A stretch of 44,488 nt of DNA from Escherichia phage vB_EcoD_Opt212, in the sequence record NC_073055.1; one strand, 5' to 3'. Below are positions 6,910 through 36,519 of this stretch, piece by piece (the stretch's first letter is position 1; every line of letters begins with the position of its first letter). A program made the position numbers and the translations under genes. The notes below the pieces were generated by a model that was not told where the DNA came from, did no database searches, and saw only the letters and a program-made list of their open reading frames with translations.

Positions 6910-7083
6910 TTATTCAGTCTCAGACGAGGGGGGCCATTGACCCCCGTCTAGTCTGAAAGACTGGGGTGCTGTCCCGCTGTCCCGCTCCTCTGGAAGCCGC
7001 GCCATCCGGGGCGGGACGGGGGTGCTGTCCCGCTTTGTCCCGCCCGCTTTTTGTCCCGCTTTTTGTCCCGCTTACTTTATGCA
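6910..7083. repeat. GTCCCGC-iteron element, copy A
   Basis: 75-bp block identical to 34727..34801, then 6 direct and 1 inverted (T)GTCCCGC copies; overall similar to 34727..34899. Confidence 0.8.
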
Positions 7084-7157
7084 GTTTTATTGCATAACTA
7101 TTCATAATAATCACACTACACGGCAACCAATACGACCAGTTAAAAACACCCAAAATG

Positions 7158-32024: not shown

Positions 32025-34663
32025 CGTTTGTAAAGTACACCACCCGGTTTCGTCGCCTTCACGATCTCGGCCTTGACCGACTCGGTGATTTGCTTTCCGA
32101 ACGCCTGCGCGGTGCGCGGGTCTGGACCGCTAACACTGGTATCCGTCTTACCGGTCCCCATGTTAACGTTGGTCGTTACAATCATTCCCCCGACACCGCC
32201 TGCCGCGGCAACGCCAAGTTTACCGTCTGGCCCGCGCTTAAGCGGCATGATGGCCTCGGGGCCAGCCTCCCCCATCAATCCTGCGCCCTTAGCGAACGCC
32301 TGGACGCCATAACTGAAAAAGGTGGGCTGGCTTACCACTTGCCCCGAATAGGCCGCGAGGTTGCCCCCTGCGTACGCTCCGCCGTCCGCATTCTTAGTGA
32401 GGCCGGAGAAAATAGCGCCGAACAATCCGTTTTTGCCGCCGTCACCGCCGAAAGCGCTAACGATGGACTTGAACGCCTGCGAGGTAGCCAGCTTTATTAA
32501 TTCGCTCAGAATGGACTTAACCATATCTTTTGCGTTCAGCTTGCCAGTCTCGAAAAACTCGTTCATCGTGTCCTGCATAGCGCCGAACGTGAATTTTGTG
32601 AGTGACGTCATCTGCGTATAGCCGTTACCCATTTCATCAACACTATCCTTAAGCCCGCGGCTGAAGCCATCCCATAGCGAGGCGTTAGCACCGGTCTGTG
32701 CTTCCTGCACTTCGCGCAGCTTAGACACCGCCAGATCAATATCGGTATCGTTAGCGCCCACCCGCTTCAGGCGATCAATTAGCTGCAATTCTTCGCGCAG
32801 GTTAGCCGCTTCGCGAGTGGAAAGCGCATATCCCGCCGCGGTGGCTTTTAGCTCGGCGTTCTGGTTCTTGATGAATGCATCGACCTGGGCGTGTGCTTTG
32901 ATCTGCTTCTCTTTCGCGTCCAGCAATTTGGCTTCTTCGACGATCTGCTCGCGTACCGATTTAACCGCCTCGAACGCCGCCGTTTGCTGCTTTTCTGCTG
33001 CCGTGAGTGCGCGCTCCTTGCTCGCGGTGATTAACTGCTCATTATCGGCAATCAGCTTGTTCAGGGACGCTTGCGCGCGTTGCGTGCGGGTCTGCGTCGA
33101 TGCGTTGGCTTCGATCTGCTTTCCAGACTCACGAAGCTGGGCTAATTCGCTTCGCGCGACTTCCAGCATTTTCAGCCCGGCATCGACTCGAACTGCCGCC
33201 GCTTTCTTCGGCGCGGGGTCTTTGTAACGCTCGTTGACCTGCTTCACCGCCTCGGCTAGTTCTTTCTCGTTAATAACACCGCGCTTATTCAGCAAATTTA
33301 GGCGGGCGATCTCGTCGGCTCGCCGCTTCGCGTTGGTTGCGTACTCCTTCTCAAACGCGGCGCGGTCGCGGGCGGCGCGGTTTGCCTCCTCGTTCGCCTT
33401 TGCTGCTTCATCCGCGGCGCTGGCGCTGTCTCGCTCGGCACGGTTGCGAAGGGTGAGCGACGCTACTACCTTTTCCTGGGCGACCAGTTCGCTGTAAAGC
33501 ATGTTAATACGCGCTTTCTGCGCTTCGGTCATCACCCCACCGGCAGCGTTTACCGCCCTCATCTCGGCATAGTACGCCGTGGTCATGCGCTGCAAGGACT
33601 CACGCGCTTTCATCTCGGACTCATTCGAGGACTGCGCGCGGCCCACATCCAGGATGGCATCCCACATAGATTTAGCTGCCGATGTAACTACGTTCATCGA
33701 CCGCTCAAGCGTACCCATGTTGGACTTTACCTCATCGGTCATGCTGGAGAACGACGCAGCGGCTGTTTTGTTAGCCAGAGCAACCGCGTCCGTTTCACGC
33801 CCCATATCTACAAGCGATTGCACCTGCTGGATCTGCGCCTCGGTAACGACATGATACTTATCCGCCAGCGCACGCAGTCCGCCCACTGGGTCGTTCGACA
33901 ATTTTGAGATGGATTCAACCACGTCAGAGATCGGCTGATTAGACGCCTTCGCGAAGTCATTCACAACCTTCGCCAGCGCGCCGAAGTCCGCCCCCGCTTT
34001 CACACCCGCCGCCGCCAGCGCCTGGATTGTGTCACGCGTCTTGCGGAACGACCCGCCCATGCGCTCGGCGTTCTCGGATAGCACCAGGATCTGGTTTGCC
34101 GTTAGGCCGGAAATGTTACCTGACAGCGCCAGCGTCTTGTTAAGCGCTGCGACCTGGTTCTCTGCGCGGGACGTAATTGCTACGCCCACGCCTAACGTTG
34201 CCGTTACCGCAGCAAGGCCGATCCCAACTGGACCGAGGAAGCCAGCAACATAACGCAGAGTGTTACCCAATCCACCGAACGCCCCAGTTAGCTGCGGTAA
34301 CTGCTGAAGCATAACGCGGTGTACCGGCATCCCCATCTCAAGCGTAACTGCGATATCCTGTAACTGGAATGCGGCGTTACGCGAGGCAAAGCCCAGGTTT
34401 TTAGTCGACATGCCTAACCTGTTGGCGAGTCGCTCCTGTTTCGTCATGCCATCGGCGGCGCGCTGCGATTCGTTTGCCAGCTTTTCCATTCCGCCCGCGG
34501 CGTCACTCGTCACCTTTTTGGATTTGCCGAGGGTGTCGTTTAATTTCTTAACCTTGTTTTCTGTGTTCTCGGATTTCTGTGCGAAGGAGTCCAGCACAGT
34601 ATTTGCCGTTCTGATTTGTGCAACATCAGCCTTTAGCGTGATGCCTGCTGCCTGATCTGCCAT
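32021..34663 (-). CDS. tail tape measure protein
   Basis: 880 aa; long Ala/Gln/Glu-rich helical middle; Gly-rich C-terminus; position. Confidence 0.85.
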   Translation of the reverse strand: MADQAAGITLKADVAQIRTANTVLDSFAQKSENTENKVKKLNDTLGKSKKVTSDAAGGMEKLANESQRAADGMTKQERLANRLGMSTKNLGFASRNAAFQLQDIAVTLEMGMPVHRVMLQQLPQLTGAFGGLGNTLRYVAGFLGPVGIGLAAVTATLGVGVAITSRAENQVAALNKTLALSGNISGLTANQILVLSENAERMGGSFRKTRDTIQALAAAGVKAGADFGALAKVVNDFAKASNQPISDVVESISKLSNDPVGGLRALADKYHVVTEAQIQQVQSLVDMGRETDAVALANKTAAASFSSMTDEVKSNMGTLERSMNVVTSAAKSMWDAILDVGRAQSSNESEMKARESLQRMTTAYYAEMRAVNAAGGVMTEAQKARINMLYSELVAQEKVVASLTLRNRAERDSASAADEAAKANEEANRAARDRAAFEKEYATNAKRRADEIARLNLLNKRGVINEKELAEAVKQVNERYKDPAPKKAAAVRVDAGLKMLEVARSELAQLRESGKQIEANASTQTRTQRAQASLNKLIADNEQLITASKERALTAAEKQQTAAFEAVKSVREQIVEEAKLLDAKEKQIKAHAQVDAFIKNQNAELKATAAGYALSTREAANLREELQLIDRLKRVGANDTDIDLAVSKLREVQEAQTGANASLWDGFSRGLKDSVDEMGNGYTQMTSLTKFTFGAMQDTMNEFFETGKLNAKDMVKSILSELIKLATSQAFKSIVSAFGGDGGKNGLFGAIFSGLTKNADGGAYAGGNLAAYSGQVVSQPTFFSYGVQAFAKGAGLMGEAGPEAIMPLKRGPDGKLGVAAAGGVGGMIVTTNVNMGTGKTDTSVSGPDPRTAQAFGKQITESVKAEIVKATKPGGVLYKR

Positions 34664-34726
34664 TATGCAGTCCCCTTTTTTATGCAGTTGCCGATGGATA
34701 TTGTATCAGCGATTTCAAAACAAACC

Positions 34727-34899
34727 TTATTCAGTCTCAGACGAGGGGGGCCATTGACCCCCGTCTAGTCTGAAAGACTGGGGTGCTGTCCCGCTGTCCC
34801 GATCGGCTGAAAACCGCGGCAGCACTGGCGGGGACGGGGTGCTGTCCCGTTTTGTCCCGCCCCTTGTTTGTCCCGCTTTCTGTCCCGCTTACTTTATGC
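34727..34899. repeat. GTCCCGC-iteron element, copy B
   Basis: first 75 bp identical to 6910..6984; similar iteron array. Confidence 0.8.
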
Positions 34900-34924
34900 A
34901 ATAAAACTGCATAGGTATGCACAT

Positions 34925-35043
34925 TTACAGGGCGTGACAAAACGGGACGTCCCGCCTGTCCCGCTTTGAGTTTATGCAATGAAAGTGATTAGATATGCGG
35001 TTTTACAGAGGCGGGACAAAACGGGACGTCCCGCCTGTCCCGC
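34925..35043. repeat. two tandem ~78-bp units each with 12-bp palindrome CGGGACGTCCCG
   Basis: palindromes at about 34943..34954 and 35022..35033 with flanking GTCCCGC/GCGGGAC. Confidence 0.75.
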
Positions 35044-35047
35044 TTCA

Positions 35048-35724
35048 TTATGCGGGGTTCTGCTGCGCCATCTCATCAAGCGCGATTCGTTCCATTAGCT
35101 TGATATCTTTAAACGCGCGCTGCTCGTTTTCGATACCGTGCATCTTAAATAGCCACTCCAGCACGCCGTAGTCGATGCCGTATGCGCCACCAAAACCGGT
35201 GCGCCATTGCGTGGAGCAATCTGTGAAGACTGCGACTATCTTCGCGTTGTCAGGCCATAGCGCAACAGGCGGACAAACATCTTCAGGGGCCGCACCCCAT
35301 AAACTCGCGGCTAAATCTTCGGAGGGTGGCGGCGGGCCATAAAAGCGTCGCGCCGCCTCAATTAGTTTTTTTCACGCAATCCCATCAGTTCAAGATAGTA
35401 CGACGTGTGGAACACCCCGAACGCGCGTGGGTAGTTGACCACCAGGCGGCGGACGTTCTCCGCGTTAAATTCGTCCGGCAGATTCCAGCCTTCTGCGACG
35501 TGCATGATGGCCTCGACCATAACGTTAAAGCCGTCCGGGTCATTGTCGTCATATTCCGACAGCTTTCGTTCGGTGTCCTGCATGGTTTGCGAAAATTCGT
35601 CGATCGGGCGGTGGCGGACGGTAAACGTCATCTTGCCCGGTTCGTTCTCACCTGGGCGCGGGATCTCAATCGGCAGCTTAAAGGTCGGCTTAGGGTCAAG
35701 TGTAAAGAGTGGTGCTTTAGCCAT
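35048..35724 (-). CDS. tail assembly chaperone GT (-1 frameshift product)
   Basis: A_AAA_AAC slippery heptamer at about 35365..35371, 2 codons before the G stop; -1 frame stays open about 105 codons to stop at 35048. Confidence 0.55.
35362..35724 (-). CDS. tail assembly chaperone G
   Basis: 120 aa from ATG with GGAG RBS (track ORF starts at upstream TTG); between major tail and tape measure genes. Confidence 0.65.
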   Translation of the reverse strand: MAKAPLFTLDPKPTFKLPIEIPRPGENEPGKMTFTVRHRPIDEFSQTMQDTERKLSEYDDNDPDGFNVMVEAIMHVAEGWNLPDEFNAENVRRLVVNYPRAFGVFHTSYYLELMGLREKN

Positions 35725-35740
35725 TGTAGTATTCTCCAAT

Positions 35741-35763
35741 AAAAAAGGGGCCGTGCTGGCCCC
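35741..35763 (-). terminator. rho-independent terminator after major tail gene
   Basis: GGGGCC/GGCCCC stem followed by U6. Confidence 0.6.
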
Positions 35764-35793
35764 ATATTAACACTCGCTATTTAAGCGACCAAA

Positions 35794-36519
35794 TCAAGAC
35801 AATGCCTCGACCAGATCCTTACGGTAGATAACCATATCAGACTGCATGGTCAGAGTGGATTGTACTGTTTCCACGTTGTTTACTTCAGCGGAAGGAATCT
35901 TCTGGAAAGATACCTTTGCCGGGTAAATACGGATCTCACCTTTGCCGCTTGCCGCTGCCGGGTTAGTGAACTTAATCACAGTGGTTTTCTGTGTGTCGTC
36001 CAGGTCTTCCAGGATTGGGCGGATCGGGTCTTCTTCGTCGTGGGTGAAGGTGTAAGTCTGTACCAACGGGTTTTTCGTGGTGTTAAGACTGATTGCGGTG
36101 TTCACCTGCAACGGCTGGAAGGTAGTAGTCTGCTGGTCGCCACCCGACACGGCAACGTTAGTAATGAAAGGGAAGTCGATAAAGCTCGACACCTTCACCA
36201 CTTCGCCCGGAGTGCCTACGCTGAAAGCGCCGGTAGGGTATTTTGTGACGTCAGAGGAGTCGAAGCGCGCCAGCGTCACGTCGTTCTCGGCTACTTTACC
36301 CACGATGAATGCACGGTTAAGCGCTCGGACCCACGGGGTTTTAGTGAACATAACAACGTCGCCAACAACCAGGCCATGCGATGCCGCGCAGGTAATTACG
36401 CAACCTTGCGTAAGGTCAGAGATTGATGCGGTGGCGTTGGTAGCTGCCGTAACAGCGATGCCGCTGCCTAATACGGACCCGATCTGGACGCTGGACCCGT
36501 TGGGGAGTTGATAACCCAT
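35794..36519 (-). CDS. major tail protein
   Basis: 241 aa; AGGAG RBS; followed by terminator and chaperone G/GT. Confidence 0.7.
   Translation of the reverse strand: MGYQLPNGSSVQIGSVLGSGIAVTAATNATASISDLTQGCVITCAASHGLVVGDVVMFTKTPWVRALNRAFIVGKVAENDVTLARFDSSDVTKYPTGAFSVGTPGEVVKVSSFIDFPFITNVAVSGGDQQTTTFQPLQVNTAISLNTTKNPLVQTYTFTHDEEDPIRPILEDLDDTQKTTVIKFTNPAAASGKGEIRIYPAKVSFQKIPSAEVNNVETVQSTLTMQSDMVIYRKDLVEALS

Follow-up and report, generated by a model that had tools for sequence, protein, structure and literature searches.

The G/GT pair of phage lambda, reported by Levin et al. (1993) and by Xu, Hendrix and Duda (2004), is the founding example of a tail assembly chaperone gene that is extended by a programmed −1 frameshift. 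In lambda, G and GT bind the tape measure protein and the T portion recruits the tube protein, and neither G nor GT is found in the finished virion. The lambda genome (NC_001416) carries two overlapping open reading frames between V and H, the second of which lies in the −1 frame and has no start codon of its own, and an in-phase heptamer of the X_XXY_YYZ type stands near the end of G. Here we describe a locus with the same layout in a 44,488 nt stretch of DNA from Escherichia phage vB_EcoD_Opt212 (NC_073055.1), which we refer to as the window and to which all coordinates refer unless another locus is named. The two systems differ in their details. The lambda heptamer, G_GGA_AAG, stands 15 nt ahead of the G stop codon, whereas the A_AAA_AAC of the window abuts the stop; the lambda T extends for 144 codons and overlaps the start of H, whereas T of the window has 105 codons. 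BLASTP comparison of the window proteins with those of lambda gave no detectable similarity (E 9 for G against G and E 0.46 for T against T), and a Pfam search of the window proteins returned no match to the lambda G or T families, finding Phage_TAC_4 and DUF1799 instead. As judged from the sequence, the locus of the window is like that of lambda in position and in predicted mechanism, but belongs to different sequence families.

The dnaX gene of Escherichia coli, which encodes gamma and tau, provides a second point of comparison. Its frameshift takes place at an A_AAA_AAG heptamer and makes use of a downstream stem-loop and an upstream Shine-Dalgarno-like element. The window has a heptamer of the same class (A_AAA_AAC) and likewise has a stem-loop a few nucleotides downstream as a candidate stimulator. 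It differs from dnaX in that no upstream Shine-Dalgarno-like element is supported, and in the consequence of the shift: the shifted frame of dnaX stops almost at once and gives the shorter product, whereas the shift in the window would give the longer one.

Among the T1-like phages (Drexlerviridae), the published description of Citrobacter phage Stevie presents it as having a conserved tape measure chaperone frameshift (PMC4319613). Stevie, IME-JL8 and tiwna share with the window both the Pfam families and the gene order (tube, G, T, tape measure), and their T domains are 35-38% identical to that of the window. Many T1-like phages also resemble the window in that A_AAA_AAC runs straight into TAA and T is read in the −1 frame; T has ∼106 codons in these phages, and a GC-rich hairpin lies 4-7 nt downstream. 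The run of A is six long in the T1-like phages and seven long in the window, and some T1-like subgroups, unlike the window, have noncanonical junction motifs. Furthermore, T of the T1-like phages stops within ∼40 nt of the tape measure start, whereas in the Dhillonviruses a repeat-bearing gap of 357-406 nt separates the two.

Megablast of positions 34600..35900 identifies the window as a Dhillonvirus, that is, an HK578-like coliphage and a siphophage. The best match is JLBYU37, at 99.7% identity, and almost all of the 157 phage records matched are Escherichia phages of the genus Dhillonvirus. Over the GT region, records MG065648.1, OQ221563.1 and GQ502199.1 (Campylobacter phage A144, Acinetobacter phage NJ01 and Sodalis phage SO-1) are 92-97% identical; the genus is otherwise found on E. 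coli and Shigella, and the host labels of these records look doubtful. Reading along the minus strand, the major tail protein gene is followed by an ORF of 120 aa (G), a stretch without convincing annotation, and the tape measure gene (Table 1). Both G and T therefore sit between the tube gene and the tape measure gene, where a G/GT pair is expected. The tape measure protein is of the lambda type (TMP_2 and Tape_meas_lam_C) and is the presumed client of G/GT. The terminator-like hairpin between the major tail protein gene and G was found in 16 Dhillonvirus loci (L006-L020 and L001), in which the stems vary in sequence but keep their pairing (for example, GGGCCGTACTGGCCC and GGGGCGTAAGCCCC). 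This hairpin probably attenuates transcription, such that G, GT and the tape measure protein would be made at lower levels than the tube protein.

Table 1. Features of the G/GT locus and its surroundings, with the junctions of three relatives for comparison.
Feature	Position	Strand	Basis or remark
Major tail (tube) protein gene, 241 aa	35794..36519	-	Pfam Phage_tail_3, E 5.2e-32; phrog_584 major tail protein, E 1.1e-73; upstream neighbour
Terminator-like hairpin GGGGCC-AGCAC-GGCCCC with T6 run, between major tail protein gene and G	35741..35763	-	Pattern scan
Shine-Dalgarno sequence GGAG, 9 nt 5' of the G start codon	35734..35737	-	Direct reading of the sequence
G, tail assembly chaperone, 120 aa, 14.0 kDa, zero-frame product	35362..35724	-	Translation; Pfam PF08748
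−1-frame TGA directly 5' of the slip site, upstream limit of the shift window	35372..35374	-	
Slippery heptamer A_AAA_AAC, in phase with G	35365..35371	-	Invariant in 17 Dhillonvirus sequences
G stop codon TAA, abutting the heptamer	35362..35364	-	Direct reading
Predicted hairpin GGCGGCG-(16 nt)-CGCCGCC, 7 nt 3' of the heptamer	35328..35357	-	Candidate frameshift stimulator
T extension, 105 sense codons (35365..35051) in the −1 frame, then TAA (35050..35048)	35048..35365	-	Translation
DUF1799 domain (PF08809), extension residues 23-99	35069..35299	-	E 6e-21, 74.9 bits (cutoff 26), profile 1-80 of 80
Non-coding gap, 384 nt, with CGGGACA repeats and hairpins, from GT to the tape measure ATG	34664..35047	-	Context, not part of the frameshift
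Tape measure protein gene, 880 aa	32021..34663	-	Pfam TMP_2, E 3.1e-44; Tape_meas_lam_C, E 7.6e-14; downstream neighbour
Noncanonical junctions (Koroua, Sadiya, Trimon)	L060 1183-1192, L062 1174-1183, L005 1357-1366		

A preliminary description of this DNA placed the feature at 35048-35739. The codon at 35739 is a TTG that overlaps the Shine-Dalgarno sequence, and G more likely starts with the ATG at 35724, as annotated in JLBYU37. The resulting protein matches the Phage_TAC_4 profile (PF08748) with E 1.4e-23 and 83.9 bits against a gathering threshold of 21.1, its residues 1-120 aligning to positions 1-124 of the 124 in the profile. With regard to the second frame, the same description had it open for about 105 codons, up to a stop at 35048 just before an insert of iterons. 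Translation of both frames agrees with this: no early stop follows the slip site in the −1 frame, which remains open for 105 sense codons until the TAA, itself directly followed by a TGA, and the CGGGACA repeat region begins at 35042. When the 315 nt extension was shuffled 20,000 times by single nucleotides, only 1.3% of the shuffled sequences were free of stop codons, and the Pfam match to DUF1799 (E 6e-21), taken together with the codon-position periodicity described below, rules out a frame that is open by chance.

The conceptual fusion, complement(join(35048..35365,35365..35724)), is a protein of 225 aa and 25.6 kDa. Its alignment to phrog_17368 (residues 1-223 on profile positions 1-212 of 213, E 1.7e-32) extends from one end to the other, and proteins that span both the G and the T parts therefore already exist in this family. 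Searching a database of 5.8 billion proteins with the fused GT found no fused GT; there were only two matches, both of G alone and at 58% identity. Near-identical Dhillonvirus G proteins were also missing from those matches, so close relatives of the window are seemingly absent from that collection. Searches of PDB sequences, NCBIfam and Rfam returned nothing useful.

The junction reads ...ATG GGA TTG CGT GAA AAA AAC TAA TTG AGG... on the minus strand in the frame of G, and TGA AAA AAA CTA ATT GAG... in the −1 frame. The run of seven A occupies 35372..35366. Given that the −1 frame is closed by the TGA on the upstream side and the zero frame by the TAA on the downstream side, any shift is confined to ∼9 nt, which run from the start of the heptamer through the second base of the G stop TAA. 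The +1 frame reaches a stop after two codons. A_AAA_AAC, a heptamer of the X_XXY_YYZ type in phase with G, is the only sequence in this overlap. The stop codon of G had been placed two codons beyond the run of A; this needs correction, as the TAA abuts the heptamer directly. We compared this region in 17 distinct Dhillonvirus sequences, comprising the window, JLBYU37 and 15 IMG/VR contigs.

To look beyond the genus we ran tblastn with the T extension alone, beginning just after the slip site so that the query carried no slip-site information. This search matched 1,149 phage records, which beyond Dhillonvirus include T1-like phages (Drexlerviridae), Cronobacter phage phiES15, and phages of Ralstonia, Vibrio, Pectobacterium and Pseudomonas, at ∼30-45% identity in T. 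Ten distant relatives from this search were analysed at the junction. T lies in the −1 frame in all ten, with 103-107 codons counted from the stop of the upstream chaperone ORF, and in every one the junction motif either abuts the G stop or sits one codon before it. A canonical heptamer and stop are present in seven of the ten: A_AAA_AAC in phiES15, IME-JL8, tiwna (the last two being T1-like), PsgS01F and Phagiculus, and G_GGA_AAC in Ralstonia phage Dina and Vibrio phage Marilyn. If the slip site is functional, canonical heptamers should replace one another at this place, as they do here. The junctions of the remaining three are noncanonical, reading CGT CAA AAG TAA (T_CAA_AAG) in Pectobacterium phage Koroua, GCA AAG GTC TAA in Sadiya and GCA AAA GTT TAA in the Webervirus Trimon. 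The family thus admits exceptions to the heptamer rule; these three phages may use a slip of a single tRNA on A_AAG or A_AAA.

A further 36 metagenomic loci all have AAAAAAC followed by a stop. It is important to note that, given that these loci were partly selected with the junction peptide EKKLIEAA as a scan pattern, they are consistent with the heptamer rather than independent support for it. On inspection, L044 and L055 are ordinary −1 cases, and L057 has a later frame break. Across the 17 Dhillonvirus sequences and the ten distant relatives, the arrangement is retained despite the divergence of the sequences. The likening of this locus to the conserved G/GT frameshift of long-tailed phages, made in the preliminary description, is borne out, in that the arrangement persists where T is only 30-45% identical, and with G_GGA_AAC as the heptamer in some cases.

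The hairpin predicted downstream of the slip site has a folding energy of −17.1 kcal/mol (z −2.23, for the isolated 41 nt fold against shuffles), and is the most stable of 174 overlapping 42 nt windows within 300 nt on either side. It is also the top local window in four relatives with different stem sequences, and hairpins of similar strength and spacing, built from other arm sequences, are seen in T1-like IME-JL8, Vibrio phage Marilyn and several metagenomic relatives. The local-window comparison found no unusually stable structure in the Rogunavirinae-type loci L061-L063, in phiES15 or in L021. RNAalifold applied to 14 divergent junctions from across the clades found no common structure, given that the hairpin arms lie at different offsets in different clades; we therefore used the comparison of each genome with its own local control windows in place of a cross-clade consensus. 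A longer fold of 86 nt after the slip site is no better than shuffles (z 0.22).

The same stretch is also where synonymous change is most strongly suppressed in the G/T pair. Over the 12 codons from the slip site onward, only one of the 12 third positions is variable, against a background of 63%; nowhere else in the gene pair do synonymous sites vary so little, and 235 of 20,000 permutations gave a value as low. The longest invariant run, of 26 nt (35376..35351), takes in the slip site, the stop codon, the spacer and the 5' arm of the hairpin. The coincidence of the hairpin with suppressed synonymous variation suggests a stimulatory RNA element, and we regard the hairpin as a probable frameshift stimulator. 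A stop codon next to a slip site also enhances −1 shifting in E. coli, and a zero-frame stop is found directly 3' of the slippery motif or one codon later in all relatives examined. We rejected an upstream Shine-Dalgarno-like stimulator as a further candidate, given that the GGGN in question is a glycine codon whose wobble base varies (GGA, GGC, GGG).

Our reading of these features is that GT is, with high probability, made by −1 ribosomal frameshifting at 35371..35365. Most ribosomes would translate G and terminate at the TAA, releasing the product of 120 aa, while a minority would slip while decoding AAA-AAC (35370..35365). The tRNAs in the P and A sites (Lys and Asn) would re-pair one base upstream on A_AAA_AAC, and reading would resume at CTA (35365) for 105 more codons, yielding a GT protein of 225 aa with DUF1799 in its C-terminal half. 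Tandem slippage would leave Asn as residue 120, whereas a slip before the A-site codon is decoded, or one during transcription, would place Lys there. Pausing of the ribosome, and with it more frequent slipping, is probably promoted by the abutting zero-frame stop and by the GC-rich hairpin that begins 7 nt after the heptamer. If the pair works as in lambda, the tape measure protein would be coated by G and GT, with the major tail protein recruited through T, leading to tails of the correct length. In this scheme we infer that the slip occurs, how often it does so, what the hairpin contributes and how the chaperones act.

The two frames could also be joined before translation, by RNA polymerase adding an A within the run of seven so that G and T are in frame in a subset of the mRNA. 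The run is invariant in the 17 Dhillonvirus sequences and is eight long in L055, and one inserted A would give exactly the frame of T, with residue 120 then being Lys rather than Asn. However, what the family as a whole retains is the X_XXY_YYZ pattern and not a homopolymer: T1-like phages have only A6, while in the G_GGA_AAC of Dina and Marilyn the same base is never repeated more than three times in a row. For E. coli RNA polymerase to slip efficiently, a stretch of ∼9 or more A or T is generally required. Furthermore, the conserved hairpin, at the 7 nt spacing that is typical of ribosomal stimulators, and the abutting stop codon both fit a translational event. Transcriptional slippage could contribute to GT, but we think it very unlikely to be the main route.

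Variation among the 17 Dhillonvirus sequences bears on whether the −1 frame is coding. The variable sites at codon positions 1, 2 and 3 number 10, 6 and 74 in G, and 22, 9 and 68 in T when it is read in the −1 frame; reading T in the other two frames moves the peak to position 2 or position 1. Between the window and L020, the most divergent member, T differs at 52 of 315 nt but at only 12 of 105 residues, which implies purifying selection along the whole of the −1 frame. T is a second ORF in the −1 frame that overlaps the end of G, and it lacks an initiation signal of its own. The first ATG, GTG or TTG in its frame lies 67 codons into the 105-codon extension (69 counted from the TGA), inside DUF1799; this is a GTG, and an ATG follows at codon 75.

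GenBank records nonetheless treat T as a small gene that is separate from G and begins at an internal start of its own; several of them annotate short ORFs here, and the GTG and the ATG would be available to begin them. However, such a product would miss more than half of DUF1799 (residues 23-99), and the codons that precede these starts keep both their coding periodicity and 90-100% conservation of amino acids. The first start also lies at codon 31, 44, 69 or 76 (counted from the TGA) in different Dhillonviruses, while in each Dhillonvirus examined the slip site is exactly where the T frame becomes open. Given that the first start codon is deep inside DUF1799 and unconserved in position, independent initiation cannot yield the domain, and we give a separate T gene still less credence than slippage in transcription. 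Least credible of all is that the two frames reflect an error in an error-prone homopolymer run (a true A8 would join them into one gene of 225 aa) or an unexpressed, decaying pseudogene, given that the same A7 and frame offset occur in 17 separately deposited or assembled Dhillonvirus sequences, that the −1 offset recurs in distant relatives with different junction sequences, and that third-position periodicity is strong.

We therefore return to ribosomal frameshifting as the preferred account. The frame geometry, the identities of the domains, the purifying selection on the −1 frame and the conservation of the arrangement are established at the level of the sequence, and with them we are confident in assigning this locus as the G/GT tail assembly chaperone pair of Dhillonvirus, expression of the fusion being predicted from the same features. 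The original proposal of a programmed −1 frameshift at A_AAA_AAC leading to GT stands in every respect that sequence can address, namely the position of the genes, the Phage_TAC_4 match, DUF1799 in the −1 frame and the in-phase heptamer.

The frameshift had also been thought to account for an unannotated gap of 300 bp. T does fill 318 nt, but the stretch without annotation is ∼700 nt long, and a non-coding gap of 384 nt remains between T and the tape measure gene. This gap is rich in the motif CGGGACA, which occurs 23 times in the window against ∼6 expected, a count reached in none of 100 shuffles. Part of the gap, a module of ∼190 nt, is duplicated 27.8 kb away at ∼6910-7100, just 3' of an AAA_25 helicase-like ORF of 754 aa (replicative helicase-like). 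Six CGGGACA motifs are spaced identically in the two copies of the module, and after them come ∼85 nt that are perfectly conserved and contain hairpins (∼34803..34719). A gap of 357-406 nt with 6-8 motifs is present in 17 of the 18 Dhillonvirus loci checked, the remaining one being truncated; in the T1-like phages, lambda and the other relatives analysed, T ends within ∼45 nt of the tape measure start or overlaps it.

The 3' part of the gap, of 101 nt, folds at −38.5 kcal/mol (z −2.07), and Rfam contains no match for the gap element. An alignment of the 384 nt gap across the 17 Dhillonvirus sequences gave 338 of 384 positions as variable, a figure that we set aside as probably due to misalignment around indels. 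The gap may serve as a set of clustered sites for protein binding (iterons or operators), combined with an RNA element. More speculatively, the frameshift cassette might be a conserved three-part signal, made up of the A_AAA_AAC heptamer, the zero-frame stop that abuts it and, at a spacing of 6-8 nt, a GC-rich hairpin whose arms vary in sequence but keep their pairing. This signal would be common to the DUF1799-type chaperones of very different phages and would show in the window as the synonymous-site constraint that is the strongest in the gene pair, and to it the Dhillonviruses would add their module of ∼380 nt as a regulatory break or a cluster of DNA-binding sites in the tail operon; we put this forward tentatively, as an idea that is more doubtful than probable.

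A joined GT coding sequence was not found among ∼60 of the 157 matching Dhillonvirus GenBank records. In these records the region is labelled 'hypothetical protein', carries truncated ORFs of 38-90 aa, or is called 'tail length tape measure protein'. JLBYU37, for example, has a 'DUF1799 domain-containing protein' of 38 aa annotated inside T, while Pandora71 names G as a tail assembly chaperone and leaves T uncalled. The short GenBank ORFs in the T region are annotation artefacts. The tape measure label can be traced to PHROGs 569, 680 and 17368, which are chaperone G/T families labelled 'tail length tape measure protein', and as a result many records annotated with pharokka have duplicated labels, with two or three 'tape measure' genes. 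A full-text literature search for Dhillonvirus or HK578 together with frameshift returned no title or abstract on the G/GT site.

The G/GT frameshift itself is well known and is an expected trait of long-tailed phages; what is new here is an unannotated instance of it in Dhillonvirus. Its main value lies in correct annotation, and it does not change what is known of phage biology. Coliphage collections often contain Dhillonviruses, the BASEL phages Oekolampad and TheodorHerzl among them, and a correct model of GT therefore matters for proteomics, for studies of tail assembly and for engineering. Furthermore, given that the cassette is compact, consisting of a 9 nt shift window and a hairpin, it would make a convenient test of how stop codon and hairpin tune −1 frameshifting in E. 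coli.
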